Of a DNA stretch of 64,000 bases, positions 3,371 through 43,154 are shown piece after piece. The position numbers were made by a program, and so were the translations under genes. Under the pieces are notes generated by a model. That model saw nothing but the letters and a program-made list of their open reading frames with translations, was not told where the DNA came from and searched no databases. Numbering within the stretch: the first letter of the stretch is position 1; every line of letters starts with the position of its first letter. Origin of the DNA: a plasmid; assembly GCF_054482595.1 (NCBI RefSeq), contig NZ_JBTHVH010000004.1, one strand, 5' to 3'.

Positions 3371-4207
3371 CTAGTATGACGTCTGTCGCACCTGCTTGAT
3401 CGCGGCCGCGATAGCTAGATCGCGTTGCTCCTCTTCTCCATCCGCGTTCCAAGCTGCGGAAAGGCACCCATAAGCGTACGCCTGGTCGAGCAGGCGACGC
3501 GGATCGACGTCCAGCGCACGAGAGAATGCGTCCGCCATCTGTGCAATGCGTCTAGGATCGAGACAAAGGTCGTCTCTGTCAGCCGGATCGTAGAACATAT
3601 TGGCGGCGCCAAAGCCCACTTCACCGACCAGACCGACGGGATCTATCACCAGCCAGCCGCGACTGGAGAACATGATGTTTTCATGATGCAGATCGCCATG
3701 TAGCCCACGCAGTTCCGAGGCATTGCTCATCATTTGATCGGCTATAATCGCCGCGTGGACGTAGTCAGTTTGACAACCTGCGTTTTGATCATCGCGCGCC
3801 CGCTGAAACAAAGCTGCAAAGCGATCCCGGATCGGGAGAAGGGCAGAAGGCAGGGGTTCCTCAGATGCGGCATACAGCTTCGCCATTAGTTCCGCTGCAA
3901 TTTCGGTCGCCTGGTAGTCGCCGTGCTCGGCAACGATGTGAGAGAGCATTCGCTCCCCGGCATATTCGAGCAACATCAGATTGTTCTCACGACCGAGCAA
4001 CCGGACTGCTCCCCTCCCATTGCGCCATACCAGATAGTCGGCCCCGCGCAGTTCATCAGCAATGTCTTCTATAGGTTTCAATTCCTTGACGATTGCAGGA
4101 GTCCCGTCTGGCAATGAAACTTTCCAAACGAGGCTGGAAAAGGTGTCCGCAATGAGAACAGGTTGCGAAACGTGCCAATGAGCAGGAAAAACAGGCGGCA
4201 TGAACAT
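3371..4207 (-). CDS. strB: Aminoglycoside 6-phosphotransferase APH(6)-Id (StrB)
   Basis: ORF track 3371..4216; 278 aa from MFMPPVFPAHWHVSQPV... to ...AIKQVRQTSY; ATG overlaps strA stop by 1 nt. Confidence 0.95.
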   Translation of the reverse strand: MFMPPVFPAHWHVSQPVLIADTFSSLVWKVSLPDGTPAIVKELKPIEDIADELRGADYLVWRNGRGAVRLLGRENNLMLLEYAGERMLSHIVAEHGDYQATEIAAELMAKLYAASEEPLPSALLPIRDRFAALFQRARDDQNAGCQTDYVHAAIIADQMMSNASELRGLHGDLHHENIMFSSRGWLVIDPVGLVGEVGFGAANMFYDPADRDDLCLDPRRIAQMADAFSRALDVDPRRLLDQAYAYGCLSAAWNADGEEEQRDLAIAAAIKQVRQTSY

Positions 4208-5010
4208 CAACCCCAAGTCAGAGGGTCCAATCGCAGATAGAAGGCAAGGCGTTCGCGGTCGGGGGCTTCGATCCCCAATACATTGAATAGGACAGCGAAG
4301 GCGCGCTCTGCTTCATCTGGCGCTGCCCAGTTCTCTTCGGCGTTAGCAATCATGAGTGCCAAATCGGCATAGCGATCTGCTGTTCCGAGCCGCCCAAGGT
4401 CGATCAGACCCGTGCATTGAAGAGTTTTAGGGTCCACCATGAAGTTCGGCATGCAGGGATCACCATGGCAAACAACCATATCGGTGCGCTCTTGGTCGAG
4501 CCGCACCGGTAGCTCTCGTTCGACACGAGCCAAAAGATCGAGCTGCGGCGTACTCTTGTCCTCGTCCGGTAAGAAGTCGGGATTGACGGCATTGCGGGAC
4601 ACCACATCAACGGCGCGTCCGAACATTCGCGACAGCCTGCGCTCAAACGGACATTGATCAACCGATAGGCTGTGAACAGCGCCAAGTTGCTGCCCCATTG
4701 ACGGCCACGCTTTGAGCAAATCCGCTCCAGACAGATCAGCCGCCGGTACTCCCGGAATTGCCGTTATCACCAAGCATGCACCCTCCTGTTCCTCCTGCCA
4801 GTTGATCACCTCGGGGCAAGCCACACCTCGACCTTTGAGCCAAATGAGGCGGTCACGCTCTCCAGCGAGCTCACCGCGGCGGGAAGCAGGTGCGATTTTC
4901 GCGAAGGCATGCCCGTCACCACGTCGAAAAACAAAATCACCAGATTCTCCGCCTCTGACAGGCAACCAGTCAGAATGCGATTCACCAAAAAAAATATTAG
5001 TTCGATTCAA
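4207..5010 (-). CDS. strA: Aminoglycoside 3''-phosphotransferase APH(3'')-Ib (StrA)
   Basis: 267 aa from TTG start (LNRTNIFFGESHSDWLPV...) to ...YLRLDPLTWG; ORF track 4207..5196 is a longer upstream-extended frame. Confidence 0.95.
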   Translation of the reverse strand: MNRTNIFFGESHSDWLPVRGGESGDFVFRRGDGHAFAKIAPASRRGELAGERDRLIWLKGRGVACPEVINWQEEQEGACLVITAIPGVPAADLSGADLLKAWPSMGQQLGAVHSLSVDQCPFERRLSRMFGRAVDVVSRNAVNPDFLPDEDKSTPQLDLLARVERELPVRLDQERTDMVVCHGDPCMPNFMVDPKTLQCTGLIDLGRLGTADRYADLALMIANAEENWAAPDEAERAFAVLFNVLGIEAPDRERLAFYLRLDPLTWG

Positions 5011-6793: not shown

Positions 6794-7613
6794 GGCACTG
6801 TTGCAAAGTTAGCGATGAGGCAGCCTTTTGTCTTATTCAAAGGCCTTACATTTCAAAAACTCTGCTTACCAGGCGCATTTCGCCCAGGGGATCACCATAA
6901 TAAAATGCTGAGGCCTGGCCTTTGCGTAGTGCACGCATCACCTCAATACCTTTGATGGTGGCGTAAGCCGTCTTCATGGATTTAAATCCCAGCGTGGCGC
7001 CGATTATCCGTTTCAGTTTGCCATGATCGCATTCAATCACGTTGTTCCGGTACTTAATCTGTCGGTGTTCAACGTCAGACGGGCACCGGCCTTCGCGTTT
7101 GAGCAGAGCAAGCGCGCGACCATAGGCGGGCGCTTTATCCGTGTTGATGAATCGCGGGATCTGCCACTTCTTCACGTTGTTGAGGATTTTACCCAGAAAC
7201 CGGTATGCAGCTTTGCTGTTACGACGGGAGGAGAGATAAAAATCGACAGTGCGGCCCCGGCTGTCGACGGCCCGGTACAGATACGCCCAGCGGCCATTGA
7301 CCTTCACGTAGGTTTCATCCATGTGCCACGGGCAAAGATCGGAAGGGTTACGCCAGTACCAGCGCAGCCGTTTTTCCATTTCAGGCGCATAACGCTGAAC
7401 CCAGCGGTAAATCGTGGAGTGATCGACATTCACTCCGCGTTCAGCCAGCATCTCCTGCAGCTCACGGTAACTGATGCCGTATTTGCAGTACCAGCGTACG
7501 GCCCACAGAATGATGTCACGCTGAAAATGCCGGCCTTTGAATGGGTTCATGTGCAGCTCCATCAGCAAAAGGGGATGATAAGTTTATCACCACCGACTAT
7601 TTGCAACAGTGCC
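6794..7613 (-). mobile_element. IS26 copy 1
   Basis: 820 bp bounded by GGCACTGTTGCAAA and TTTGCAACAGTGCC. Confidence 0.97.
6846..7550 (-). CDS. tnp26: IS26 transposase Tnp26
   Basis: 234 aa from [18 protein letters not shown]... (track ORF 6846..7568 includes 6 extra upstream codons). Confidence 0.95.
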   Translation of the reverse strand: MNPFKGRHFQRDIILWAVRWYCKYGISYRELQEMLAERGVNVDHSTIYRWVQRYAPEMEKRLRWYWRNPSDLCPWHMDETYVKVNGRWAYLYRAVDSRGRTVDFYLSSRRNSKAAYRFLGKILNNVKKWQIPRFINTDKAPAYGRALALLKREGRCPSDVEHRQIKYRNNVIECDHGKLKRIIGATLGFKSMKTAYATIKGIEVMRALRKGQASAFYYGDPLGEMRLVSRVFEM

Positions 7614-7702: not shown

Positions 7703-8524
7703 TTACTTGTTGTGCGGCGTCGCAGACTCATTGAACAACCTTTTTGCCTGCGCAATTACAGTTCTCGGAAGCTCGATATTCAGAGGTTCTGTCACGCTCT
7801 TGAACAATTCGAGACTCCACGTCCACGTTTGATGATAGGCTGCACATAGTGCTCTTGGTTCTGCACTGCTTGTGCATGCCAGATAGCGATTATACGAGTC
7901 CTCCGAGATATCCTTTTCGAGCGCGCGTGAAGGTGTCGGCCAGTGGTCTGTTGCCCCTTCGTGGAGTCGAACCAGCTTGAGTAGGTTTTCATGTGCTTTG
8001 CTGAGCAAAGCCCAGGCGCGAGCGTACTCTCCCCGATTTAAAAGATTGGCCCCAAAGAGCATCAGGCTGATGAGGTTCAACACAAGCCCTTCCACCAGCG
8101 GCGCGCCTTCACGTATCGGGGGACCGCCCACGAGAGCGCTTGCGTACCTTGACAACTCTCCTGATCGGTCCAACAAAACAGCCGCCTCAAGCGAGGGAAA
8201 CCACCCATAGCCTTGCCAAGTGGAAATGACCGGTATGTCCGATTTTCGCATGAAATGGAATTCACCGCGAATGCCGTTTTCAAAAAGTGCGGTGTGGTGG
8301 CCGAAGTCGTCCGGAAAGTAAGCAGCAACCGGACTTACGGCATTAAGCCACGAGCGCTGATCGAAATTTTCAAAATGGTCATCCTGGATGAACACTGCGA
8401 ATTCGATATCAGAGAACTCGTCACCCTCTCCGATAGCAAATGAGCCGAACATCAATGCCGCGATTATTCGTGCATCCTCATGACAACCTTCCTTGAAGAG
8501 TTCGATCATTTTCAGTTGAAGCAT
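7703..8524 (-). CDS. lnu(F): Lincosamide nucleotidyltransferase, Lnu(F)-type
   Basis: 273-aa ORF MLQLKMIELFKEGCHEDARIIAALMFGSFAIGEGDEFSDIEF... (NTase G-S...D-x-E motif); sits after aadA in the cassette array. Confidence 0.8.
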   Translation of the reverse strand: MLQLKMIELFKEGCHEDARIIAALMFGSFAIGEGDEFSDIEFAVFIQDDHFENFDQRSWLNAVSPVAAYFPDDFGHHTALFENGIRGEFHFMRKSDIPVISTWQGYGWFPSLEAAVLLDRSGELSRYASALVGGPPIREGAPLVEGLVLNLISLMLFGANLLNRGEYARAWALLSKAHENLLKLVRLHEGATDHWPTPSRALEKDISEDSYNRYLACTSSAEPRALCAAYHQTWTWSLELFKSVTEPLNIELPRTVIAQAKRLFNESATPHNK

Positions 8525-8655
8525 AGAAATATCCTTTTATTGAAGCCACAGATTATGAGGAAAGGTATACGCAGATTTTTGTTTTTTTTCGTCAGCACAA
8601 CGCCGGAGTTAAGCCGCCGCGCGTAGCGCGGTCGGCTTGAACGAATTGTTAGACA
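8525..8655 (-). other. aadA attC plus lnu(F) leader
   Basis: Reverse complement begins GTCTAACAATTCGTTCAAGCCGAC... (aadA attC-like imperfect palindrome). Confidence 0.6.
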
Positions 8656-9447
8656 TTATTTGCCGATTACCTTGGTGATCTCGCCTTTCACGTAGTGGAC
8701 AAATTCTTCCAACTGATCTGCGCGCGAGGCCAAGCGATCTTCTTCTTGTCCAAGATAAGCCTGTCTAGCTTCAAGTATGACGGGCTGATACTGGGCCGGC
8801 AGGCGCTCCATTGCCCAGTCGGCAGCGACATCCTTCGGCGCGATTTTGCCGGTTACTGCGCTGTACCAAATGCGGGACAACGTAAGCACTACATTTCGCT
8901 CATCGCCAGCCCAGTCGGGCGGCGAGTTCCATAGCGTTAAGGTTTCATTTAGCGCCTCAAATAGATCCTGTTCAGGAACCGGATCAAAGAGTTCCTCCGC
9001 CGCTGGACCTACCAAGGCAACGCTATGTTCTCTTGCTTTTGTCAGCAAGATAGCCAGATCAATGTCGATCGTGGCTGGCTCGAAGATACCTGCAAGAATG
9101 TCATTGCGCTGCCATTCTCCAAATTGCAGTTCGCGCTTAGCTGGATAACGCCACGGAATGATGTCGTCGTGCACAACAATGGTGACTTCTACAGCGCGGA
9201 GAATCTCGCTCTCTCCAGGGGAAGCCGAAGTTTCCAAAAGGTCGTTGATCAAAGCTCGCCGCGTTGTTTCATCAAGCCTTACGGTCACCGTAACCAGCAA
9301 ATCAATATCGCTGTATGGCTTCAGGCCGCCATCCACTGCGGAGCCGTACAAATGCACGGCCAGCAACGTTGATTCCAGATGGCGCTCAATGACGCTTAGC
9401 ACCTCTGATAGTTGGTTCGAAATTTCGATGGTCACCGCTACCCTCAT
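8656..9447 (-). CDS. aadA: Aminoglycoside (3'')(9)-adenylyltransferase AadA; aadA2-type N-terminus on an aadA1-type body
   Basis: 263 aa from MRVAVTIEISNQLSEVLSVIERHLES...; from about residue 55 identical to the aadA1 copy at 39702..40493 except ...KVIGK tail. Confidence 0.85.
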   Translation of the reverse strand: MRVAVTIEISNQLSEVLSVIERHLESTLLAVHLYGSAVDGGLKPYSDIDLLVTVTVRLDETTRRALINDLLETSASPGESEILRAVEVTIVVHDDIIPWRYPAKRELQFGEWQRNDILAGIFEPATIDIDLAILLTKAREHSVALVGPAAEELFDPVPEQDLFEALNETLTLWNSPPDWAGDERNVVLTLSRIWYSAVTGKIAPKDVAADWAMERLPAQYQPVILEARQAYLGQEEDRLASRADQLEEFVHYVKGEITKVIGK

Positions 9448-9595
9448 GATGTCTAACTTTGTTTTAGGGCGACTGCCCTGCTGCGTAACATCGTTGCTGC
9501 TCCATAACATCAAACATCGACCCACGGCGTAACGCGCTTGCTGCTTGGATGCCCGAGGCATAGACTGTACCCCAAAAAAACAGTCATAACAAGCC
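9448..9595 (-). promoter_or_regulatory. attI1 and 5'-CS leader of class 1 integron
   Basis: ...GCCCTAAAACAAAGTTAGAC immediately before aadA ATG; lies between aadA and the intI1 start. Confidence 0.75.
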
Positions 9596-9716
9596 ATGAA
9601 AACCGCCACTGCGCCGTTACCACCGCTGCGTTCGGTCAAGGTTCTGGACCAGTTGCGTGAGCGCATACGCTACTTGCATTACAGCTTACGAACCGAACAG
9701 GCTTATGTCCACTGGG
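9596..9716 (+). pseudogene. intI1: intI1, first 40 codons only (truncated by IS26)
   Basis: ATGAAAACCGCCACTGCGCCGTTACCACCG... identical to the start of the intI1 copy at 43780. Confidence 0.9.
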
Positions 9717-10536
9717 GGCACTGTTGCAAATAGTCGGTGGTGATAAACTTATCATCCCCTTTTGCTGATGGAGCTGCACATGAACCCATTCAAAGGCCGG
9801 CATTTTCAGCGTGACATCATTCTGTGGGCCGTACGCTGGTACTGCAAATACGGCATCAGTTACCGTGAGCTGCAGGAGATGCTGGCTGAACGCGGAGTGA
9901 ATGTCGATCACTCCACGATTTACCGCTGGGTTCAGCGTTATGCGCCTGAAATGGAAAAACGGCTGCGCTGGTACTGGCGTAACCCTTCCGATCTTTGCCC
10001 GTGGCACATGGATGAAACCTACGTGAAGGTCAATGGCCGCTGGGCGTATCTGTACCGGGCCGTCGACAGCCGGGGCCGCACTGTCGATTTTTATCTCTCC
10101 TCCCGTCGTAACAGCAAAGCTGCATACCGGTTTCTGGGTAAAATCCTCAACAACGTGAAGAAGTGGCAGATCCCGCGATTCATCAACACGGATAAAGCGC
10201 CCGCCTATGGTCGCGCGCTTGCTCTGCTCAAACGCGAAGGCCGGTGCCCGTCTGACGTTGAACACCGACAGATTAAGTACCGGAACAACGTGATTGAATG
10301 CGATCATGGCAAACTGAAACGGATAATCGGCGCCACGCTGGGATTTAAATCCATGAAGACGGCTTACGCCACCATCAAAGGTATTGAGGTGATGCGTGCA
10401 CTACGCAAAGGCCAGGCCTCAGCATTTTATTATGGTGATCCCCTGGGCGAAATGCGCCTGGTAAGCAGAGTTTTTGAAATGTAAGGCCTTTGAATAAGAC
10501 AAAAGGCTGCCTCATCGCTAACTTTGCAACAGTGCC
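9717..10536 (+). mobile_element. IS26 copy 2
   Basis: 820 bp with IS26 terminal IRs. Confidence 0.97.
9780..10484 (+). CDS. tnp26: IS26 transposase Tnp26
   Basis: 234 aa MNPFKGRHF... Confidence 0.95.
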   Translation: MNPFKGRHFQRDIILWAVRWYCKYGISYRELQEMLAERGVNVDHSTIYRWVQRYAPEMEKRLRWYWRNPSDLCPWHMDETYVKVNGRWAYLYRAVDSRGRTVDFYLSSRRNSKAAYRFLGKILNNVKKWQIPRFINTDKAPAYGRALALLKREGRCPSDVEHRQIKYRNNVIECDHGKLKRIIGATLGFKSMKTAYATIKGIEVMRALRKGQASAFYYGDPLGEMRLVSRVFEM

Positions 10537-10964
10537 GTAAAGGCGGCCTTATCCACCATTTCCCGAACAAGCAGGCGCTAATATTCGCCCTGTTCGCGCG
10601 TCTGCTGGCAATCATGGAAGAAGCGATTACCGCGCTGATGCAACAGGATGGCGTGAGCTATGGCCGGTTTACCCGCGCCTATCTGAACTATCTGGCGGAT
10701 CTCACGGACACCCATGAAAGCCGCCAGCTTATGGTTTTGTCGCTGGCAATGCCCGATGAACCGGTGCTGCGCAAATGCTGGCGCGACTGGATGCTGGAGA
10801 AACTGGCGCAGGGCGATGAGCTGGATAACAGCCCAACCGGCACGCTGGTGCGCTACGCCGCTGACGGCATCTGGCTTTCGGAGTTGACGGAAGGGATCAC
10901 CATGAGCGCCGACCACCGTCGCGCGCTGGTTGACTCCCTGAATAAAATGACGCTTCCCGCGTGA
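10537..10964 (+). pseudogene. TetR-family regulator, N-terminal HTH removed by IS26 (delta-orf3 of the fosA3 module)
   Basis: Frame begins at the IS26 junction: ...GGLIHHFPNKQALIFALF... through ...LNKMTLPA. Confidence 0.7.
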
Positions 10965-10983
10965 AGCACAGACTGAGGCCGCG

Positions 10984-11772
10984 ATGCGCTACAACATCAA
11001 TGCCCGTTTTATCTACGACGCCACCGACGGAACCCTGACGCTGCCGCAAAGCGATGAACCGGACAGCCAGCTATCCCTCACCGCCAGCGCCCTGTTTAAC
11101 TATTTTCTGCGCCATACCGAGATTGTCAGCCGGGAAGATGTTCTGAAAAAAGTCTGGGATGACAATGGATTAACCTCATCCAACAGCAATCTGAATCAGT
11201 ATCTCAGCATGCTGCGGAAGACCTTTCGCCATTACGGCGTCGATAACATCATCGTCACCGTCTCGCGCGGCTATTTGCAGCTTAATCCCGAGGTCATTAT
11301 CGAAGCGCTGGACGACGCGCCGCCGGTTTCACCACAACAGACGCCTGCCGAACCGCCGCCCGTTACGACAACGCCAGACGCACCGCGCTCCGCACATGCT
11401 CGCGGGATGTGCTGGTACATGGCCGGAGCCTGCTTGCTCACCATTGCCCTGCTTCTGGTTGCCTTCAGTCTGGTCGGCATCAGTGAATCCCAGCCTATCG
11501 CGCTGACCCGCCTCAGCCATAGCCAGTGCGAACTGCTGGCCAGCGATGAAATGCGACGTTCGGTCAGTGAAGAGTCCTACGGCAAAAACTTCGATGAGGT
11601 ACGCCAGCGGCTGAATATTGCCTGTAAACCCGGTGAACGTTTTCTTTTCTTCTACGGCGATCGGCTCGAAACCAACGGGCTGGGGCGCGTGTTCCTTGCC
11701 CACTGCGCCATGCATGAAGATAACCCGTTCAGCTATTGCGATAACTACTTTTACTACTCCTGGAAGCCGTAA
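10984..11772 (+). CDS. CadC/ToxR-like membrane-anchored winged-helix regulator (orf2 of the fosA3 module)
   Basis: 262-aa ORF with N-terminal OmpR-type DNA-binding region and one hydrophobic segment. Confidence 0.6.
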   Translation: MRYNINARFIYDATDGTLTLPQSDEPDSQLSLTASALFNYFLRHTEIVSREDVLKKVWDDNGLTSSNSNLNQYLSMLRKTFRHYGVDNIIVTVSRGYLQLNPEVIIEALDDAPPVSPQQTPAEPPPVTTTPDAPRSAHARGMCWYMAGACLLTIALLLVAFSLVGISESQPIALTRLSHSQCELLASDEMRRSVSEESYGKNFDEVRQRLNIACKPGERFLFFYGDRLETNGLGRVFLAHCAMHEDNPFSYCDNYFYYSWKP

Positions 11773-12290
11773 TGAGACTCGCGCCGCGTCCGTTCTTTGC
11801 CCTCTGCGTTCTGGTATTTATTGCCGCCGCCGCGTTTAGCGCCTGGCGGCTGCTGCCTGCCGACAACGCGGGTGTCATGAGCTGTTCCACTAAGGGCATC
11901 ATGCGCTTTGAGAACATGGACAAAGAGAACGTTAACGGCAATATTCACTTCAATTTTGGCGCGCAGGGTAAAGGCTCGATGGTGGTCGAAGGTTACACCG
12001 ACTCCGCCGCCGGCTGGCTCTACCTGCAACGCTACGTGAAGTTTACCTACAGCAGCAAACGCATCTCGGCCACCGAGCGTCATTACCGCATCAATCAGTG
12101 GGAATCGAGCGCCTCCTCGATTGATGAATCGCCGAACGTGATTTTCGACTACTTTATGCGCGAGATGTCCGACAGCCACGACGGGCTGTTTCTCAACGCT
12201 CAGAAGCTCAACGAAAAGGCTATCTTGCTCAGCTCTATCAATTCACCGCTGTGGATCTGCACGTTGAAATCCGGCAGTAAGCTGAACTAA
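11772..12290 (+). CDS. Hypothetical exported protein (orf1 of the fosA3 module)
   Basis: 172-aa ORF with N-terminal hydrophobic signal; start overlaps orf2 stop (TAATG). Confidence 0.6.
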   Translation: MRLAPRPFFALCVLVFIAAAAFSAWRLLPADNAGVMSCSTKGIMRFENMDKENVNGNIHFNFGAQGKGSMVVEGYTDSAAGWLYLQRYVKFTYSSKRISATERHYRINQWESSASSIDESPNVIFDYFMREMSDSHDGLFLNAQKLNEKAILLSSINSPLWICTLKSGSKLN

Positions 12291-12294
12291 CCCG

Positions 12295-12711
12295 TCAATC
12301 AAAAAAGACCATCCCCTTGTAGGGGCGTTCGCGACAGGCGGCCAGCCGCTGCGCCAGATTCCCCACATGCAGCTCCAGCTTATGGCCGTCAGGGTCGAGA
12401 AAATAGTAAGACGCCCCTTCACTGCGGTTATCTTTCCATACCTCAGCCCCCGCCTGCGCCAGCAGAGCCACCACCCCGGCAAACTCTTCTTCCGCCACGC
12501 TGAAGGCGTAGTGGGTATAGTCGCTTTCCTGAGGGGGCGTTTTACGCCGCTGCTCATCCAGCGACAAGCACAGCCACAGCGCCCCACAGGAGAGATAGGC
12601 TCCGCTATCCCAGCTGGCGTGCAGGCGCATTCCAGGTAACTGCTGATAAAATGCCAGGCTTGACGCCAGATCGCTGACCGCCAGCGTCAGATGATTCAAT
12701 CCCTGCAGCAT
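12295..12711 (-). CDS. fosA3: Fosfomycin-inactivating glutathione S-transferase FosA3
   Basis: 138 aa from [24 protein letters not shown]... to ...[12 protein letters not shown]; about 320 bp from the downstream IS26. Confidence 0.9.
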
Positions 12712-13033
12712 GACTTTTCCTCCCGTTATCAAACCCTGTTGTAAACTGTGATCGGCGACGCATCCCCTCCCGGCCTCACCTCATCACCGGCTAAAAAGCG
12801 CATTTTTTGCGTTTAGCCTGCCATCGGAAACCTGCGCCTCGCCACACTAATCCCCGCTCTATGTTACCCCTTTTTTGAAATCATTTAGCAATCCAATAAC
12901 ATTTCATCCCCCCGGAAAAAGCGGGCTAAAAATCGCCTTATTGAAGACCAAATCAGCACCGACATTACAGCATAAAGACATAAATAAACGCCCTAAAAAG
13001 ACTAAATCACAGAGCTATATCCTAAATAATTAC

Positions 13034-14594
<1,561 letters not shown>

Positions 14595-14703
14595 CTGTCA
14601 GACCAAGTTTACTCATATATACTTTAGATTGATTTAAAACTTCATTTTTAATTTAAAAGGATCTAGGTGAAGATCCTTTTTGATAATCTCATGACCAAAA
14701 TCC

Positions 14704-14741
14704 CTTAACGTGAGTTTTCGTTCCACTGAGCGTCAGACCCC
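14704..14741. repeat. Tn2/Tn3 38-bp terminal inverted repeat (IRR after blaTEM)
   Basis: CTTAACGTGAGTTTTCGTTCCACTGAGCGTCAGACCCC. Confidence 0.9.
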
Positions 14742-15355
14742 GTATATCGCTTGCTGATTACGTGCAGCTTTCCCTTCAGGCGGGATTCATACAGCGGCCA
14801 GCCATCCGTCATCCATATCACCACGTCAAAGGGTGACAGCAGGCTCAGAAGACGCTCCAGTGTGGCCAGAGTGCGTTCACCGAAAACGTGCGCCACAACT
14901 GTCCTCCGTATCCTGTCATACGCGTAAAACAGCCAGCGCTGACGTGATTTAGCACCGACGTAGCCCCACTGTTCGTCCATTTCAGCGCAGACAATCACAT
15001 CACTGCCCGGTTGTATGCGCGAGGTTACCGACTGCGGCCTGAGTTTTTTAAGTGACGTAAAACCGTGTTGAGGCCAACGCCCATAATGCGGGCAGTTGCC
15101 CGGCATCCAACGCCATTCATGGCCATATCAATGATTTTCTGGTGCGTACCGGGTTGAGAAGCGGTGTAAGTGAACTGCAGTTGCCATGTTTTACGGCAGT
15201 GAGAGCAGAGATAGCGCTGGTGTCCGGCAGTGCTTTTGCCGTTACGCACCACCCCGTCAGTAGCTGAACAGGAGGGACAGCTGATAGAAACAGAAGCCAC
15301 TGGAGCACCTCAAAAACACCATCATACACTAAATCAGTAAGTTGGCAGCATCACC
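14742..15355 (-). mobile_element. IS1, truncated (lacks about 154 bp at the insB end)
   Basis: Internal IS1 sequence begins directly after the Tn2 IR; other end GGTGATGCTGCCAAC at 15341..15355; differs at several positions from the IS1 at 5288. Confidence 0.85.
15025..15300 (-). CDS. insA: IS1 InsA
   Basis: 91-aa [21 protein letters not shown]... Confidence 0.85.
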
Positions 15356-15401
15356 CGATGCAGCTTTCGTCAATCATGACAGTTATGAGTTTTCCGGTTA
15401 C

Positions 15402-15725
15402 TTATCCATTTTTGCCAGCGTGTTCCGCAACATCTGTTTTACTGTTTACACAGCACTCTTCACGTAAGAATTCGATGATAGCTTCCAGTATTTCGTATTG
15501 AGAGACACACATGAGCGTTCGACTCTCCCGGTTTTGTGTGACGAGCCCTACTGATACCAGGGCTGAAATATGATGACTTAACGTTGATGAGGGAATGCCA
15601 AGCTGCTTTTGCAATTCACCTACAGGCAAACCTTGTTCTCCAGCTTTTACAAGATGTTTGAATATGAACAAACGGGTCGGGTGACCCAGCTCTTTTAGTG
15701 CTTTAGCTACTTCTTCCAGTTGCAT
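15402..15725 (-). CDS. arsR: ArsR/SmtB-family metalloregulator
   Basis: 107-aa ORF with HTH ...ELGHPTRLFIFKHL...VGELQKQLGIPSSTLSHHISAL... Confidence 0.7.
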   Translation of the reverse strand: MQLEEVAKALKELGHPTRLFIFKHLVKAGEQGLPVGELQKQLGIPSSTLSHHISALVSVGLVTQNRESRTLMCVSQYEILEAIIEFLREECCVNSKTDVAEHAGKNG

Positions 15726-15830
15726 GTGACAACCCTCTGTCTAATGATATTTCGATAATACCAGAAATATCTTGACCAGAATTATATTTCGATTATTCTA
15801 GAAACGTAGATTTTGTCAAGAGGGTTTAGT

Positions 15831-16964
15831 ATGAATAGTTGGATTTCTATGCTGCAAGATGCCGCAGAGATGTTTTTGTTTTTGGCCGTCGAGCTATCTT
15901 TGCTGTTTATTGTCATCAGTGCCGGTGTGAGCCTGATAAGGCAAAAGGTCCCGGACCATAAAATCCAGCAATTGATAGGGGCGAAAAAAGGAAAAGGCTA
16001 CCTGCTGGCCTCGTTGTTGGGAGCCGTTACCCCTTTCTGTAGTTGCTCAACAATTCCAATGCTACGAGGGTTGTTGTCGGCGAAAGCAGGGTTTGGTCCG
16101 ACACTCACTTTTTTGTTTGTTTCACCGTTGCTTAATCCCATTATCGTGGGGTTAATGTGGGTTACCTTTGGCTGGAAAGTAACTTTGTTGTACGCGATCA
16201 TCGCTGCCGGTGTCTCAGTCCTTGCCAGTATCGTATTGGATTTACTAGGATTTGAACGTCATATTGTTGATCACAAAAACTCAGCATCAAGTGGTTGCAC
16301 CACGAAATGCGATGATTCCGAAGCTTCGGTAAAAACGTCGGCGGGTTCCAGTTGTTGCAGCACTAGCTCGACTCAATTGCCTTTAAAAACGAGTTGCTGT
16401 ACTTCATCAGCGAACCCCATAATTAACTTAAGGACGGTAAAGAACGAGCAGAACGTATCAGCGTGTTGTTCATCAATATCATCTGAACAACCAGCTGTTA
16501 GCTGTTGCAGCAGCGAGAATCTGGGCAATGTGAATCTCACAACGAATACCACCTCTGGCCCAATAAAGTTAGCTATGAAAGATGCCTTACAGCAGTTTAA
16601 GGATGTTCTGCCTTATCTTTTGTTAAGTGTATTAATAGGTTCATTTATTTATGGCTTTATCCCTTCAGAGTGGATTGCAGCTCATGCCGGAGCAGATAAT
16701 CCCTTAGCCATACCGCTGAGTGCAGTTGTTGGTATTCCGTTGTATATCCGCGCAGAGGCAGTGATACCACTTGCATCAGTGCTGATGACTAAAGGAATGG
16801 GCCTGGGGGCATTAATGGCCTTGATAATCGGTAGTGCTGGAGCGAGTTTGACAGAAGTAATACTGCTTAAATCAATGTTCAGAATGCCTATGATAGTCGC
16901 TTTTCTGACAGTAATCCTGGGTATGGCCATACTTATGGGGTATCTGACCCAATTGCTTTTTTAA
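15831..16964 (+). CDS. ArsP-like permease carrying a Cys/Ser-rich loop
   Basis: ATG at 15831 preceded by AAGAGGG; multi-TM protein with TPFCSCS motif and central SSCCSTSS / TSCCTSS / SACCSS / VSCCSS repeats. Confidence 0.6.
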   Translation: MNSWISMLQDAAEMFLFLAVELSLLFIVISAGVSLIRQKVPDHKIQQLIGAKKGKGYLLASLLGAVTPFCSCSTIPMLRGLLSAKAGFGPTLTFLFVSPLLNPIIVGLMWVTFGWKVTLLYAIIAAGVSVLASIVLDLLGFERHIVDHKNSASSGCTTKCDDSEASVKTSAGSSCCSTSSTQLPLKTSCCTSSANPIINLRTVKNEQNVSACCSSISSEQPAVSCCSSENLGNVNLTTNTTSGPIKLAMKDALQQFKDVLPYLLLSVLIGSFIYGFIPSEWIAAHAGADNPLAIPLSAVVGIPLYIRAEAVIPLASVLMTKGMGLGALMALIIGSAGASLTEVILLKSMFRMPMIVAFLTVILGMAILMGYLTQLLF

Positions 16965-16988
16965 TAATAATAGTAAGGGTCTTCTGGT

Positions 16989-17808
16989 GGCACTGTTGCA
17001 AATAGTCGGTGGTGATAAACTTATCATCCCCTTTTGCTGATGGAGCTGCACATGAACCCATTCAAAGGCCGGCATTTTCAGCGTGACATCATTCTGTGGG
17101 CCGTACGCTGGTACTGCAAATACGGCATCAGTTACCGTGAGCTGCAGGAGATGCTGGCTGAACGCGGAGTGAATGTCGATCACTCCACGATTTACCGCTG
17201 GGTTCAGCGTTATGCGCCTGAAATGGAAAAACGGCTGCGCTGGTACTGGCGTAACCCTTCCGATCTTTGCCCGTGGCACATGGATGAAACCTACGTGAAG
17301 GTCAATGGCCGCTGGGCGTATCTGTACCGGGCCGTCGACAGCCGGGGCCGCACTGTCGATTTTTATCTCTCCTCCCGTCGTAACAGCAAAGCTGCATACC
17401 GGTTTCTGGGTAAAATCCTCAACAACGTGAAGAAGTGGCAGATCCCGCGATTCATCAACACGGATAAAGCGCCCGCCTATGGTCGCGCGCTTGCTCTGCT
17501 CAAACGCGAAGGCCGGTGCCCGTCTGACGTTGAACACCGACAGATTAAGTACCGGAACAACGTGATTGAATGCGATCATGGCAAACTGAAACGGATAATC
17601 GGCGCCACGCTGGGATTTAAATCCATGAAGACGGCTTACGCCACCATCAAAGGTATTGAGGTGATGCGTGCACTACGCAAAGGCCAGGCCTCAGCATTTT
17701 ATTATGGTGATCCCCTGGGCGAAATGCGCCTGGTAAGCAGAGTTTTTGAAATGTAAGGCCTTTGAATAAGACAAAAGGCTGCCTCATCGCTAACTTTGCA
17801 ACAGTGCC
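16989..17808 (+). mobile_element. IS26 copy 4
   Basis: 820 bp with IS26 terminal IRs. Confidence 0.97.
17052..17756 (+). CDS. tnp26: IS26 transposase Tnp26
   Basis: 234 aa MNPFKGRHF... Confidence 0.95.
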   Translation: MNPFKGRHFQRDIILWAVRWYCKYGISYRELQEMLAERGVNVDHSTIYRWVQRYAPEMEKRLRWYWRNPSDLCPWHMDETYVKVNGRWAYLYRAVDSRGRTVDFYLSSRRNSKAAYRFLGKILNNVKKWQIPRFINTDKAPAYGRALALLKREGRCPSDVEHRQIKYRNNVIECDHGKLKRIIGATLGFKSMKTAYATIKGIEVMRALRKGQASAFYYGDPLGEMRLVSRVFEM

Positions 17809-17919
17809 CTTCTGGTTTCATGTTGAACAAAGAAGACCCTTTAGCTTCTGTAATCCATTTAATCAGTCTGAATGAAATAGATTATAAATTCTGCTCTGCA
17901 TACCTGCTTAACCAAAGTC

Positions 17920-18225
17920 TCATGATTCTGATTGTCGGTACAGTGCCTGAATGTGGCATATCTGGGAGGTGCTGTACCCTGTTGCATCTGCCGTTTCTTT
18001 CTTGACCTGCCGGTAGTAAAGTACCTTTTGATGCCGTTCCTGAGCGACCTGTTTTCCCTGATATTTACCCAGCGTATGTGCGAGTTCAACTCCCTGCTTT
18101 TGGCGCTGGCGGTCAATTTGCTCGACCAGCAAAATATCATTGCGGTGACTGTCCATCAGTAAGCGACCCAGTTCCGGTCGGTCAAGTTTTGTACCGCTGA
18201 TATTCTCCCGGTAGTAACTGGCTAT
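17920..18225 (-). pseudogene. Serine resolvase (TnpR-like) remnant, degenerate
   Basis: Minus-strand frame ...ISGTKLDRPELGRLLMDSHRNDILLVEQIDR... resembles the resolvase catalytic core but has no start codon or catalytic-serine region; divergent from the adjacent tnpA. Confidence 0.45.
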
Positions 18226-18491
18226 TTTATGCCCCCGCTCCTAAACAAACTGCTCCAGCATCTCTTTTGCCCGATCGGTGAACTGATCTTCCGTCTATGC
18301 CCTTAAATAAGTGCTGATGAACATTTTTTCACCGCATTACCGCATTTAGGTTATTGCATTTAATCTATCGCATATAGGCTATGTCGTTCATTGTGTGCCG
18401 TCACGTTTAGATTATGGTGTCAGGGTATACCCTTATGCGATAACCATTTTTGTTAAAAATAACGCATCGAATAATTTATGAGGAAAACTAT

Positions 18492-21479
18492 ATGGCAAGG
18501 AGGCAGATTCTTTCTCTGTCGGAAAGAGAATCATTACTGGCATTACCGGACGATGAGTTAACGCTGACCCGAATGGCCTATTTCAGTGAGCATGATCTGG
18601 CGCTTATCAGTGCTCACCGTAAACCCGCCAGCCGTTTTGGTTTTGCCGTCCTTCTTTGCTATCTGAAAAATGTCGGCTTTGCCCCGGATAAAAAAATCTC
18701 TCCCTCTGATGCGCTGCTGAAGCATATCGCCAGCAGGCTAAAGCTTACCGGGGATCTCTGGCCTGCTTACCTTTCCGGCCGGGATACGACCCTGCGTGAG
18801 CATTTAACCGAACTGTACCGCTATCTTGGCGTAAAGGCGTTCACCGGCAAAATACAGCAGGACTGTATTACGCACCTGTTATCGATGGCGACGCGCACCG
18901 ATAAAGGCATTCTCCTAGCCGAAGAGTTACTTGTCTATCTCCGGCAGAACAACGTGATAATCCCCGCGATTGATGTCGTGGAGCGTACCTGTGCTGAAGT
19001 CATGGCAGGCGGCGATAAAATCGTATTTCAGACCCTGAATGCCCCGTTAACTCCGGCTCACAGGGATGCCCTGGATCATTTACTTGAGTCATCAGATAAT
19101 CAGCCTTCCAGGCTGACATGGCTTCTGCAACCGCCGGGTAAAATCAATGGTAAGAACGTGCTGCAACATCTTGATCGGCTCAGCAGCATTGAATCGCTGG
19201 CATTACCTGAAGGTATAGATCGTACCATTCACCAGAACCGGTTGCTGAAACTGGCGCGGGAAGGCCGAAAGATGAGTAGCCGGGATTTGACCCGATTTTC
19301 AGCTGCCCGGCGTCATGCGATCCTGGTGTGCGTGCTGGAAGAAGCCAGAGCCACACTGACAGACGAAGTGATTGAGCTGCATGAGCGAATGCTGAATAGT
19401 CTTTTCAGCAAAGCCAAACGAACACAGGCTGAGCGCCTTCAGCAGACCGGAAAGCTGATCCAGTCAAAACTGAGGCAGTACATCGATGTCGGTCAGGCGC
19501 TGTCTGATGCCCGTGATTCCGGTGGCGATCCCTGGCTCGCAATAGAAAACATACTCCCATGGGCTGAATTTGTCGCCAGTCTGGATGAAACACGCCATCT
19601 CGCCAGAAAAAATAATTTTGACCCGCTGCATATTATTACCGAGAAATACAGCACATTACGGAAATATGCCCCACGCATGTTGTCCGCTTTACAGTTAGTC
19701 GCAACCCCGGCAGCGCAACCTCTGGCTGATGCACTGGTTGTGATCAAGGATATGTACCGGAAGCAGTCACGTAAAGTTCCGGCGGCAGCGCCGCTTGAGT
19801 TTGTCCCTGAAAGCTGGCGCAAGGTGGTGATTACACCTGTGGGTATTGACCGGCAGTACTATGAGTTTTGTGCACTCAGCGAGCTTAAGGGGGCGTTGCG
19901 CTCCGGGGATATCTGGGTTAAAGGCTCGCGCCGCTACAAAAATTTTGATGATTACCTCATACCCGAGAAGGACTTTGACAAACTCACACCGGCACTGCCA
20001 CTGCCCGTATCTGCTGATTATCATGAGTACATTACCAGCCGTATGACCCTGCTTCAGTCCAGACTTGAAGAGGTCAATGCCATGGCTGCCCTTGGTGAAC
20101 TGCCCGATGTGGAAATATCCGACAGGGGCGTAAAAGTCTCTCCGCTGGATAACTGCGTTCCGGCGCAGGTTTCACCGCTGGCAGAGCTGGTTTACAGCAT
20201 GCTACCGCGACCTAAAATCACGGAAATTCTCGATGAGGTAAACAGCTGGACGACGTTTACCCGACATTTTTCGCATATAAAAAATGACATTACCCGTCCC
20301 GATACCCGCTTGCTCCTCACCACCATTCTTGCGGATGGCATCAATCTTGGCCTGACCAAAATGGCAGAAGCCTGCCCCGGGAGCACCAAATCATCACTCG
20401 AAGATATTCAGGCATGGTACATCCGTGACGAAACCTATTCAGCCGCTCTTGCAGAGCTGGTAAATGCGCAGGGGAAAAGACCGTTGGCGGCATTTTGGGG
20501 AGACGGAACAACGTCATCATCAGATGGACAAAATTTCAGAACCGGCAGCTCAGGCCGCTACGCAGGGCAGGTTAACCCGAAATATGGGCAAGAGCCTGGA
20601 CGTCAGTTTTATACCCATATTTCGGATCAATACAGCCCGTTTTACACCTGCATAATCAGTCGGGTCAGGGATTCAACCCATGTTCTCGATGGCTTGCTGT
20701 ACCACGAAAGCGACCTGGAAATCAGGGAACATTACACCGATACCGCTGGTTTCACCGATCATGTCTTTGCCCTGATGCATCTGTTGGGATTTGCGTTCTG
20801 TCCGCGAATCAGGGATCTCCACGACAAAAAACTGTTTATCAAAGGGAAAGCAGAGAAATACCCGGCGCTTCAGTCACTGATATCAACGACCAGCCTGAAT
20901 CTGAAAGAGATCGAAATCCACTGGCGTGAAGTGCTGCGTCTGGCAACCTCGATAAAGCAGGGAACCGTGACGGCATCCCTGATGCTGAAAAAGCTTGCCA
21001 GCTATCCCAAGCAAAACGGACTTGCCAAAGCACTGAGAGAAATTGGCCGCATTGAGCGAACCCTGTTTATGCTCGACTGGTTCCGCGACCCGGCTCTGCG
21101 TCGGCGGGTACAGGCGGGGCTGAATAAAGGCGAAGCCCGTAACGCGCTGGCGCGTGCGGTATTTATGCACCGACTGGGAGAAATCAGGGACAGAAAACCG
21201 GAAAATCAGAGCTATCGCGCCAGTGGACTGACGCTGCTGACGGCTGCCATATCCCTGTGGAATACCGTCTATATGGAAAGAGCGGTCGATGCCCTGAAGC
21301 GTAAAGGGGTGAAGATCAACGAGCAACTGCTGTCGCATTTGTCGCCGTTGGGCTGGGAACACATCAATCTGACAGGTGATTATATCTGGAAAAGCAACCG
21401 GATACCGGCTTCTGGTAAGTTTCGTCGGCTAAGACCAGCTAAAGTCGAAAGGTCAAAAAACAGCCTTAACGTACAATAA
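18492..21479 (+). CDS. tnpA: Tn3-family transposase TnpA, full length (unnamed element)
   Basis: 995 aa from [19 protein letters not shown]...; Tn3-family motifs throughout; stop overlaps a 38-bp terminal IR. Confidence 0.9.
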   Translation: MARRQILSLSERESLLALPDDELTLTRMAYFSEHDLALISAHRKPASRFGFAVLLCYLKNVGFAPDKKISPSDALLKHIASRLKLTGDLWPAYLSGRDTTLREHLTELYRYLGVKAFTGKIQQDCITHLLSMATRTDKGILLAEELLVYLRQNNVIIPAIDVVERTCAEVMAGGDKIVFQTLNAPLTPAHRDALDHLLESSDNQPSRLTWLLQPPGKINGKNVLQHLDRLSSIESLALPEGIDRTIHQNRLLKLAREGRKMSSRDLTRFSAARRHAILVCVLEEARATLTDEVIELHERMLNSLFSKAKRTQAERLQQTGKLIQSKLRQYIDVGQALSDARDSGGDPWLAIENILPWAEFVASLDETRHLARKNNFDPLHIITEKYSTLRKYAPRMLSALQLVATPAAQPLADALVVIKDMYRKQSRKVPAAAPLEFVPESWRKVVITPVGIDRQYYEFCALSELKGALRSGDIWVKGSRRYKNFDDYLIPEKDFDKLTPALPLPVSADYHEYITSRMTLLQSRLEEVNAMAALGELPDVEISDRGVKVSPLDNCVPAQVSPLAELVYSMLPRPKITEILDEVNSWTTFTRHFSHIKNDITRPDTRLLLTTILADGINLGLTKMAEACPGSTKSSLEDIQAWYIRDETYSAALAELVNAQGKRPLAAFWGDGTTSSSDGQNFRTGSSGRYAGQVNPKYGQEPGRQFYTHISDQYSPFYTCIISRVRDSTHVLDGLLYHESDLEIREHYTDTAGFTDHVFALMHLLGFAFCPRIRDLHDKKLFIKGKAEKYPALQSLISTTSLNLKEIEIHWREVLRLATSIKQGTVTASLMLKKLASYPKQNGLAKALREIGRIERTLFMLDWFRDPALRRRVQAGLNKGEARNALARAVFMHRLGEIRDRKPENQSYRASGLTLLTAAISLWNTVYMERAVDALKRKGVKINEQLLSHLSPLGWEHINLTGDYIWKSNRIPASGKFRRLRPAKVERSKNSLNVQ

Positions 21480-21502
21480 TTTTCGATATCCAAACTGACC
21501 CC
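21465..21502. repeat. 38-bp Tn3-family terminal IR at the tnpA end
   Basis: Reverse complement GGGGTCAGTTTGGATATCGAAAATTATTGTACGTTAAG. Confidence 0.75.
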
Positions 21503-37731: not shown

Positions 37732-38970
<1,239 letters not shown>

Positions 38971-42834: not shown

Positions 42835-43154
42835 GAAACCATCTCCTTGAACAAAGGATTTGGCGGCGCTCCCGTAGAGCAAAAGGATTCATGAGAACGC
42901 CGCAACAACCGAAAAATGAAGGTTGCTGCGGCTTACTTGTCTGCGTTCTTGGAAGTGCTCATCTGCTGACTATCTCATGATTGAATTTGAATCGTAACAA
43001 CTTTCAAGCAACTCTGCGAGGAGCCTTATTGTGCGCCCAACGCCGCCATAAACGGCGACAGGGTGGCGCGCCTATTGCGCATAAAATGGCGAAGCCATGC
43101 GCAACAGGCGCGGAATCTCTGGCGTCCGGTTTGATGGCTTTGTTATGCAAAGGA

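Follow-up and report, generated by a model that had tools for sequence, protein, structure and literature searches.

The right-hand part of a probable TnEc1/Tn6901-subgroup transposon with ars cargo and a dead resolvase gene in an IncHI2 backbone

Positions 17920-21502 of the window, the whole 64,000-nucleotide stretch of plasmid DNA analysed here, carry a Tn3-type transposase gene next to what is left of a resolvase gene, which raises the questions of which transposon this DNA belongs to, how far that transposon extends, and whether its lineage can still move. The first-pass annotation had described these positions as a Tn3-family transposon in which tnpA is intact but the resolvase has decayed, and profile matches and alignments bear out this assignment. 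The span, however, holds only for the tnpR-res-tnpA module and not for the whole element, since element-derived DNA continues leftward through a permease gene, an arsR-like gene and IS1, and thus covers 14742-21502. We consider it highly probable that a Tn3-family transposon of the TnEc1/Tn6901 subgroup, with arsenic-resistance cargo and a dead tnpR, has left its right-hand 6.8 kb here, and that this copy was damaged later. The features of the region are the following:

14742-15355, minus strand: IS1 remnant, 614 of 768 bp (sequence read; the full IS1 is at 3608-4375 of copy L001)
15402-15725, minus strand: arsR-like gene, 107 aa, ArsR/SmtB-family regulator (NCBIfam NF033788, 63 bits, cutoff 55; Pfam HTH_20/HTH_5)
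15831-16964, plus strand: ArsP_1-family permease gene, 377 aa (Pfam PF03773, E = 5.7e-53)
16981-16988: left 8-bp IS26 target duplication, CTTCTGGT (sequence read)
16989-17808, plus strand: IS26, 820 bp, between the permease gene and the tnpR pseudogene (terminal repeats GGCACTGTTGCAAA and TTTGCAACAGTGCC)
17809-17816: right 8-bp IS26 target duplication, CTTCTGGT (sequence read)
17817-17919: spacer of 103 bp from the cargo to the end of tnpR (comparison with relatives)
17920-18324, minus strand: tnpR pseudogene, 405 bp long where intact relatives have 636-642 bp (alignment with tnpR of Tn6901, L006, and of a TnEc1-like element, L009)
18325-18491: res-like intergenic region (motif scan)
18492-21479, plus strand: tnpA, intact, 995 aa (NF033527, Pfam, Tn4430 alignment)
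21465-21502, minus strand: right terminal inverted repeat (IR), 38 bp, exact, GGGGTCAGTTTGGATATCGAAAATTATTGTACGTTAAG (pattern search of the window)
21503-21800: IncHI2 backbone at the insertion point (in other IncHI2 plasmids the empty site reads ...GTGATTACCT followed directly by GAATACAAGG)

The 995-aa transposase is intact, as had been stated: it matches the Tn3-family profile NF033527 over its full length with 1128 bits (cutoff 500), as well as the Pfam families DUF4158 (PF13700) and DDE_Tnp_Tn3 (PF01526, E = 5e-148). Residues 3-985 align with the Tn4430 TnpA structure, and the SSSDG, HYTDTAG and NKGEA motifs are kept. A single substitution, R101L (18793), separates the protein from TnpA in most other copies, and NCBI gives the exact protein the generic name 'Tn3 family transposase'. 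Comparison with Tn6901 TnpA (96.8% aa identity) gave a dN/dS of 0.08, and relative to Tn6901 the gene is under purifying selection.

The 38-bp IR is likewise exact at 21465-21502, where 0 matches are expected by chance; the tnpA stop codon sits within it, and the likeness to relatives reaches about 48 bp (21455-21502). It had been regarded as not assignable to a named transposon, but it is identical to the IRs of TnEc1 and of Tn6901/Tn6399/Tn7489, an IR family known from the literature (bioRxiv 10.1101/2022.09.12.507718). Precisely at its tip, the IR meets an IncHI2 backbone gene. The window contains no second copy with up to three mismatches, a scan for inverted repeats over 8000-22500 did not yield one either, and in pTB-nb4 the left IR (IRL) is absent from the opposite end of the IncHI2 resistance region, where IS26 forms the left boundary. 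Elsewhere, full-length copies have exact IRs at both ends; the window has the right one alone. With its single IR, the window copy is an incomplete transposon: its left end is gone, and what remains in the IncHI2 backbone is one-ended. Tn5393 was also considered, as strB lies near some copies; its IR and gene order differ, and strB is a mere flank in L001.

Tn6901, Tn6399 and Tn7489 are formaldehyde-resistance Tn3-family transposons present on Rts1, R471, pBK31551 and others. They share with the window the order cargo, tnpR, res, tnpA (bioRxiv 10.1101/2022.09.12.507718), their tnpA-side IR is identical to that of the window, their frm-side IR is one base off, and Tn6901 (L006) is flanked by a 5-bp duplication, AATTA. 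Across tnpA, res and the initial 213 bp of tnpR (18110-21502), Tn6901 and the window are about 94-95% identical in nucleotides. Yet the Tn6901 group carries frmR-frmA-VOC(gloA)-fghA(frmB) downstream of an intact tnpR (211 aa) and has no IS1, whereas the lineage of the window carries ars genes, a dead tnpR and IS1. The cargo-less TnEc1 (ISfinder) has the identical IR and the same divergent tnpR/tnpA layout. However, the window TnpA is only 91% identical in amino acids to a protein that NCBI names as TnEc1-family, and the DNA about 82%, which falls short of the near-identity expected of TnEc1 itself. Furthermore, in the TnEc1-like L009 an intact 213-aa resolvase gene is followed directly by the IR; in the window a 103-bp unrelated spacer and the ars cargo follow instead. 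This spacer has no similarity to Tn6901 or TnEc1 (45% identity), contains no IR remnant that we could find, and has only identical copies in PLSDB. At a greater distance, the group resembles Tn3 and gamma-delta (Tn1000) in its DDE transposase of about 1000 aa, its 38-bp IRs of the GGGG...ACGTTAAG type, its 5-bp duplications, and the divergent arrangement of tnpR and tnpA around res. It differs from them in a longer type of resolvase (211 aa), of which the catalytic domain alone exceeds the Pfam threshold and the tail is weakly HTH_23/Sigma70_r4-like, in the death of tnpR in the lineage of the window, and in a res motif, TAYCGCAT, that is unrelated to Tn3 res.

Full-length members of the lineage measure 6.4, 9.0 or 10.2 kb; the longest form, of 10,213 bp, is a reconstruction from NZ_CP068387.1 (21063-41875) after subtraction of a nested Tn2. 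All three share a left end consisting of IRL, 269 bp and IS1, and differ only by deletions of ars cargo adjacent to IS1, so that only the junction between the inner end of IS1 and the cargo varies. The same IS1, without a duplication of its own, is present in all full-length copies and is therefore part of the lineage; in the window its outer part is missing along with IRL, and the remnant adjoins the right IR of Tn2 (14704-14741). At a query coverage of at least 80%, the 6,394-bp unit, which spans 42327-48720 in NZ_CP024287.1 and is bounded on either side by an exact IR, occurs in at least 116 plasmids of PLSDB; among 5,426 complete E. coli genomes, 64 carry it. Chicken and pig predominate among the listed host sources, and some isolates are human. 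Exact target duplications surround five copies in unrelated replicons; four of these duplications measure 5 bp and one measures 6 bp:

TACAA: pVM01
AGATA: CP123651
TCCCTG (6 bp): IncY, NZ_LC511659
TAATC: E. coli PC6 chromosome, 9.0-kb form
AATAA: S. Gallinarum IncX1, 10.2-kb form with nested Tn2

In a sixth copy the two flanks nearly match (CTATA/CTAAA). Among the seven full-length 6.4-kb copies examined, two (L001 and L017) have no duplication and one has a duplication with a mismatch.

These copies bear on how the cargo and IS26 are to be understood. It had been proposed that IS26 cuts the element at 17808. If so, the window would hold a self-contained tnpR-res-tnpA transposon that lost its left part to IS26, and the permease and arsR-like genes would be unrelated plasmid DNA. 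An IS26 end does lie at 17808, no IR is present between the permease gene and tnpR, and IncI and IncF backbones that lack the transposon harbour variants of the arsR-permease pair at 90-96% identity. However, IS26 is a simple insertion flanked by the 8-bp duplication CTTCTGGT rather than a cut, and in L001 and L016-L022, which lack IS26, the flanks are contiguous at that point. Moreover, full-length copies have their IRL on the far side of arsR and IS1, and target duplications bracket the unit including its cargo in the five different replicons, by which plasmid backbone is ruled out as the status of the pair in the window copy. We therefore give an IS26-truncated, cargo-free transposon very little credence, and retain the larger ars-cargo unit; it is possible that the cargo originated from IncI/IncF-type backbones.

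The permease belongs to the ArsP_1 family and lies in an ars operon context: in the longer forms (L021 and L022) the arsR-like gene is the first of arsR-arsH-sigma70-arsD-arsA, and the permease gene is divergent from these genes. It has a PFCSCS motif and a Cys-rich loop, and NCBIfam relates it only below threshold to the SO_0444 (Cu/Zn) and SaoE families. The ArsP of C. jejuni effluxes MAs(III) or trivalent roxarsone (PMC6205960), and from this known function a specificity of the cargo for arsenicals would follow by analogy.

The resolvase gene is indeed present as a degenerate frame divergent from tnpA, but two details of its first description need correction. Firstly, it was said to have no start codon; its ATG is at 18324-18322. 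Secondly, it was said to lack the catalytic-serine region; this region is there as the N-terminal YLRA*TEDQ, in which the Ser10 codon has become amber. Mapped against the intact relatives of 211 aa (Tn6901, L006) and 213 aa (TnEc1-like, L009), tnpR has four lesions: TCG to TAG at Ser10 (18297-18295), TAG in place of Gln28 (18243-18241), an in-frame deletion of 222 bp (junction 18112/18111), and an in-frame deletion of 12 bp (junction 17999/17998). The 74 codons lost in the larger deletion encoded the remainder of the catalytic domain together with the linker to the DNA-binding domain, and only positions 3-94 of the 145 in the Pfam Resolvase profile are still matched, 95-145 being gone. The smaller deletion removes four codons of the DNA-binding domain. 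Because of these stop codons and deletions the resolvase is dead, and since the window contains no cognate intact resolvase, it has no cointegrate-resolution module with a functional recombinase. No named transposon was found whose resolvase is naturally of this form; those of the named relatives are intact (211-213 aa).

It could be argued that the remnant still functions, either because a 78-aa product (18156-17920) binds res and represses tnpA, or because amber suppression restores a shortened protein. Both deletions are in frame, the 78-aa ORF is open from an internal ATG and keeps the C-terminal helix-turn-helix, and many short C-terminal resolvase fragments (45-111 aa) exist in the protein database. 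Against this, the 12-bp deletion takes out LSIR at the very start of the helix-turn-helix, the 74-codon deletion takes about the latter half of the catalytic domain, the internal ATG is not preceded by a visible Shine-Dalgarno sequence, and with its two stop codons the gene is called by PGAP as a pseudogene with an internal stop. That the remnant is perfectly conserved carries no information, since the entire element is conserved to the same degree. A functional remnant thus seems to us hardly credible, and we treat tnpR as dead.

The tnpR lesions are not peculiar to the window. The 6.4-, 9.0- and 10.2-kb versions all have the identical dead tnpR; sequence identity of the pseudogene and res is 100% among the duplication-flanked L016, L018-L020 and L022 as well as L001 and L017, and L021, annotated with an internal stop, is 99.98% identical to L001 over the tnpR/res stretch. 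As all copies examined, including the duplication-flanked ones, share the same lesions, the lesions predate those moves. The gene is also a mosaic: its 3' 186 bp are only 77% identical to Tn6901, against about 94-95% for the first 213 bp, and thus a breakpoint lies within tnpR (Fisher p = 4e-7). The best match to an intact ancestor of the 3' part reached 86% aa and about 79% nt identity in PLSDB and a set of 5.8 billion proteins.

Next to the pseudogene, the res-like region contains three TAYYGCAT repeats with a 14-bp spacing (18338, 18352 and 18366), the palindrome AGGGTATACCCT at 18422-18433, and the inverted pair ATGCGATA (18435-18442) and TAACGCAT (18460-18467). Tn6901 and the TnEc1-like element have these motifs as well, with divergent spacers between them, and res was apparently retained while tnpR decayed. 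A promoter scan of res gave only consensus-level matches, no more than in shuffled sequences.

Does a lineage without resolvase still move? At least seven distinct IRL junctions and at least eight distinct right IR (IRR) junctions lie exactly at the IR tips, and together with the five duplications they show repeated TnpA-mediated insertion after the present form was reached. The five duplication-flanked copies further indicate that the lineage transposes without a resolvase of its own. One could object that the element is a relic that no longer transposes, spread by IS26/IS1 rearrangement and plasmid recombination, with a tnpA too young to have decayed. In accordance with this, copies of the lineage are 99.8-100% identical, so that selection on tnpA cannot be read within it; many copies are one-ended or rearranged (for example the window, L002 and L013); and two full copies lack a duplication. 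However, the junctions at the IR tips and the five exact duplications, which include the IS1-containing 6.4-kb form, are not accounted for in this way, and we consider a dead relic unlikely. The IRL and cargo sides could in principle have been joined via IS1 recombination without being contiguous ancestrally, but the five duplication-flanked copies speak for joint movement of both sides ever since.

A history of transposition followed by local damage may be outlined from these comparisons. The most complete form, the reconstructed one of 10.2 kb, has the order IRL, 269 bp, IS1, a truncated ModE-like gene, arsA, arsD, sigma-70, arsH and arsR, then a divergent ArsP-type permease gene, tnpR, res, tnpA and IRR. 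Stepwise deletions from the inner end of IS1 would have given the 9.0-kb and then the common 6.4-kb form, left with only arsR and the permease gene, which is the type carried by the window. The window copy would later have lost its IRL side, with Tn2 coming to lie against an internal point of IS1 and the region being reworked by IS26, and a further IS26 would have entered the interval between the permease gene and tnpR. Having the right IR only, it is barred from normal two-ended movement; judged from its sequence, it can probably still supply TnpA.

Tn3 and gamma-delta are the paradigm of replicative transposition followed by resolution through a serine resolvase; in Tn3 tnpR mutants, cointegrates accumulate and tnpA is overexpressed. 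IS1071 and similar Tn3-family elements consist of TnpA and IRs, have neither tnpR nor res, and are mobile without a resolvase of their own; unlike them, the lineage of the window keeps a decayed tnpR, an apparently intact res and cargo. TnpA acting on two 38-bp IRs would produce replicative cointegrates, which we infer to be resolved by host homologous recombination or, on the retained res, by the resolvase of a related element in trans. By analogy with Tn3, loss of TnpR may also derepress tnpA. More speculative, and as a whole rather improbable in our view, is the reading that this ars transposon had already lost its resolvase when its recent spread began, that it is still actively transposing in Enterobacteriaceae, and that it may fuse plasmids and be selected by organoarsenicals. 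Since its own cointegrates are not resolvable by the element itself, it may act as a plasmid-fusion engine that links IncHI2, IncF and IncX1 plasmids, P1-like phage-plasmids and the chromosome, and organoarsenical feed additives may select it via the ArsP/ArsH cargo. The lineage is a natural case in which to ask how Tn3-family elements without a resolvase finish transposition in the wild.

The current view of Tn3-family biology is not challenged by these results: the element is ordinary resistance-plasmid scaffolding from a widespread lineage, and their value lies chiefly in annotation. DNA in hundreds of resistance plasmids can be recognised as the backbone of an ars-cargo transposon whose ends and deletion derivatives are defined and whose resolvase knockout is fixed, and this unit explains why the arsR-like gene, the permease gene and IS1 travel with tnpA. 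It is distinct, although usually tagged as deltaTnEc1 or 'Tn3 family transposase'. We found no account of it in the literature on pVM01, on the RefSeq proteins of the element, or on arsP/arsH with Tn3/IS1; it may already bear a Tn number. The junction has been labelled deltaTnEc1 in a report that also cites the IS26 duplication CTTCTGGT (PMC8920835). This duplication, together with the IRR-IncHI2 junction, is a marker for lineages of IncHI2 multiresistance regions; a query across that junction is covered to at least 80% by 52 records of PLSDB.

The first-pass annotation had described an intact transposase, a 38-bp inverted repeat and a decayed resolvase between 17920 and 21502. This observation is real, although its details were partly misread. 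The transposase covers the whole NCBIfam profile (1128 bits), contains the Pfam domains DUF4158 and DDE_Tnp_Tn3, and aligns with the solved TnpA of Tn4430 across residues 3-985. The motifs SSSDG, HYTDTAG and NKGEA are kept and align with three Tn4430 residues, which we take to be D679, D751 and E881. R101L (position 18793) is the single substitution that separates the window tnpA from most other copies. The 38-bp repeat is exact, and no second copy of it was found in the window.

Transposase gene and right end
18492-21479: tnpA, full-length Tn3-family transposase of 995 aa (NF033527, Pfam, Tn4430 alignment)
21465-21502, minus strand: right inverted repeat, 38 bp, exact match (0 expected by chance)

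The first-pass annotation had not assigned the inverted repeat to a named transposon. The element is a member of a named family, and exactly the same repeat also ends Tn6901-type and TnEc1-like elements. In the Tn6901 type, a formaldehyde-resistance transposon carried by Rts1 and by Klebsiella plasmids (L005, L006), it is found at the tnpA end, whereas the repeat at the frm end is one base off. The TnEc1-like element L009, whose TnpA carries the NCBI name "TnEc1 family", has no cargo and has the exact repeat at both ends. TnEc1 has been described as cargo-less, and the frm-cargo type has been named Tn6901, Tn6399 and Tn7489, with near-identical 47-bp inverted repeats (10.1101/2022.09.12.507718); PMC4551976 likewise uses the name Tn6901. 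Nucleotide identity to our element, taken across tnpA, res and the 5' 213 bp of tnpR, is about 94-95% for the Tn6901 type and about 82% for the TnEc1-like type (L009 / P0006), the TnpA amino acid identities being 96.8% and 91%, respectively; the dN/dS of tnpA against the Tn6901 type is 0.08. The remnant has already been labelled in the literature: on IncHI2 NDM-5 plasmids, an IS26 upstream of "deltaTnEc1", with the duplication CTTCTGGT, adjoins IS26-blaTEM-IS1, as in the window (PMC8920835). The literature searched held no description of the full ars-cargo transposon or of its deletion series, though the former may already have been numbered. The value of the present analysis is modest, and lies in annotation and plasmid-lineage tracing.

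There is no doubt that the resolvase gene is dead, but the first description, in which it had no start codon or catalytic-serine region, does not hold. When 17809-18500 (minus strand) was aligned with intact tnpR genes from two relatives, both proved to be present, the catalytic motif reading YLRA*TEDQ instead of the YLRASTEDQ of the relatives.

State of tnpR
18324-18322, minus strand: start codon, present
18297-18295: Ser10 codon, TCG changed to TAG
18243-18241: Gln28 codon, CAG changed to TAG
junction 18112/18111: 222-bp in-frame deletion, codons 72-145 lost
junction 17999/17998: 12-bp deletion, LSIR at the start of the helix-turn-helix lost

The Pfam Resolvase profile matches the remnant only over positions 3-94 of 145, and the identical sequence is annotated by PGAP as a pseudogene with an internal stop; the decay is real and has become fixed in this lineage. 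The final 186 bp of tnpR share only 77-79% identity with either relative (Tn6901, TnEc1-like), a significant departure from the 5' portion of the gene (against Tn6901, Fisher p = 4e-7), and no intact relative closer to the 3' part was present in PLSDB or a large protein set. The tnpR remnant is therefore a mosaic, whose breakpoint lies at or inside the deleted segment. Matches to the 63-aa C-terminal part of the pseudo-resolvase were all short (45-111 aa) resolvase-tail or helix-turn-helix proteins, mostly from Enterobacterales where a source was named; either such truncated tails are widespread, or the candidate filter was biased towards proteins of small size. The res-like region keeps TAYCGCAT repeats conserved across three lineages, and no intact cognate resolvase is encoded in the window.

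On the Escherichia albertii plasmid NZ_CP024287 (L001), the right inverted repeat has an exact, oppositely oriented counterpart 6.4 kb to its left, and the two enclose 269 bp, a complete IS1, an arsR-like gene, a permease gene, pseudo-tnpR, res and tnpA. At least 80% of this 6,394-bp unit is covered in at least 116 PLSDB plasmids; among 5,426 complete E. coli genomes, 64 cover it to this extent. Flanks were inspected in seven copies of the 6.4-kb form and in two of longer forms.

Copies with flanking duplications (left / right)
L018, pVM01, IncF, 6.4 kb: TACAA / TACAA
L020, CP123651, 257-kb Salmonella plasmid, 6.4 kb: AGATA / AGATA
L019, NZ_LC511659, IncY, 6.4 kb: TCCCTG / TCCCTG
L016, NZ_CP073978, P1-like plasmid, 6.4 kb: CTATA / CTAAA, one mismatch
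L021, E. coli PC6 chromosome, 9,032 bp: TAATC / TAATC
L022, S. Gallinarum IncX1 plasmid, 10,213 bp minus a nested Tn2: AATAA / AATAA

The 6.4-kb copies L001 and L017 (IncX1 pCP53-38k) have no flanking duplication. Repeated insertions of the entire unit, dead tnpR included, have produced Tn3-type duplications. Among the copies flanked by duplications, L016, L018-L020 and L022 do not differ from one another by a single base in pseudo-tnpR and res, nor do they differ there from L001 and L017 (99.98% identity in L021); the knockout of tnpR is therefore older than those moves. Following the established Tn3 pathway, TnpA would generate cointegrates which, without TnpR, would be resolved either through homologous recombination of the two copies by the host or by the resolvase of a resident Tn6901 or TnEc1 acting in trans. 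In Tn3, tnpR mutants overexpress tnpA, and by analogy the loss of tnpR may raise tnpA expression here too; a promoter scan of res was uninformative.

Since the full element is present in P1-like and IncY plasmids, phage-type replicons may be carriers; in the P1-like plasmid it sits between the lpa and c1 genes. A topB-H-NS-hypothetical segment lies beside the left repeat in one of L015 (pSI96-1) and L002 (pHS30-1) and, inverted, beside the right repeat in the other, which suggests an inversion or intramolecular transposition involving the element.

All three forms share an IRL-269 bp-IS1 end and a tnpR-res-tnpA-IRR end, and differ only in the cargo point abutted by the inner end of IS1.

Inner end of IS1
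10.2-kb form: after a truncated ModE-like gene, beyond an intact arsA
9.0-kb form: within arsA
6.4-kb form (the type of the window copy): just past the arsR stop codon

IS1 is known to cause adjacent deletions starting at its end, and no target duplication of this IS1 itself was found; by analogy, we infer that the three forms are products of such deletions. The ancestral cargo was therefore an ars cluster in which arsR-arsH-sigma70-arsD-arsA and an ArsP_1-family permease gene are divergently arranged. The protein encoded by the latter has a match to Pfam PF03773 (E = 5.7e-53), falls below every NCBIfam family cutoff, and carries a PFCSCS motif that presumably resembles the vicinal-cysteine motif of ArsP. 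In Campylobacter jejuni, ArsP is an exporter of trivalent organoarsenicals, roxarsone among them (PMC6205960), and the permease here may act likewise.

In the window, IS1 is cut internally at 14742 by the right inverted repeat of a Tn2 (14704-14741), and the IRL side is therefore missing; IRL is absent from the window and from the 50 kb leftward in the near-identical pTB-nb4 (NZ_CP033636), where an IS26 forms the start of the resistance region. The tip of the right repeat joins an IncHI2 backbone gene exactly, uninterrupted IncHI2 plasmids reading GTGATTACCT followed directly by GAATACAAGG across this site, and a query spanning the junction is at least 80% covered in 52 PLSDB records. With one inverted repeat, the window copy would be immobile by the standard route, while still encoding TnpA. 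Tn2 struck the IS1 of this transposon twice, independently: near the IS1 3' end in the window (14704-14742), and in L022 (16316-26910), where a Tn2 carrying TnAs1 lies inside insA with its own duplication, CGTAA.

The IS26 at 16989-17808 had been read as cutting the element. It is instead bracketed by two direct copies of CTTCTGGT, at 16981-16988 and 17809-17816, and in eight other loci lacking it the sequence ending at 16988 is contiguous with that from 17817. This IS26 also splits an 11-bp inverted repeat (AAGGGTCTTCT ... AGAAGACCCTT; 16976-16988 and 17809-17836) directly downstream of the permease stop codon, which may be the terminator hairpin of that gene. The window, an IS26-rich IncHI2 multiresistance region closely matching pTB-nb4, contains eight complete IS26 copies within 6794-63682.

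IS26 in the window
6794-7613, 9717-10536, 13034-13853 and 16989-17808: copies 1-4
38151-38970, 44786-45605, 56908-57726 and 62863-63682: copies 5-8
47524: lone IS26 end

A second Tn3-family transposase frame (983 aa, minus strand) lies beside a 185-aa resolvase frame at the right end of the window (59496-62914), and belongs to a different transposon, probably of the Tn21/Tn1721 type.
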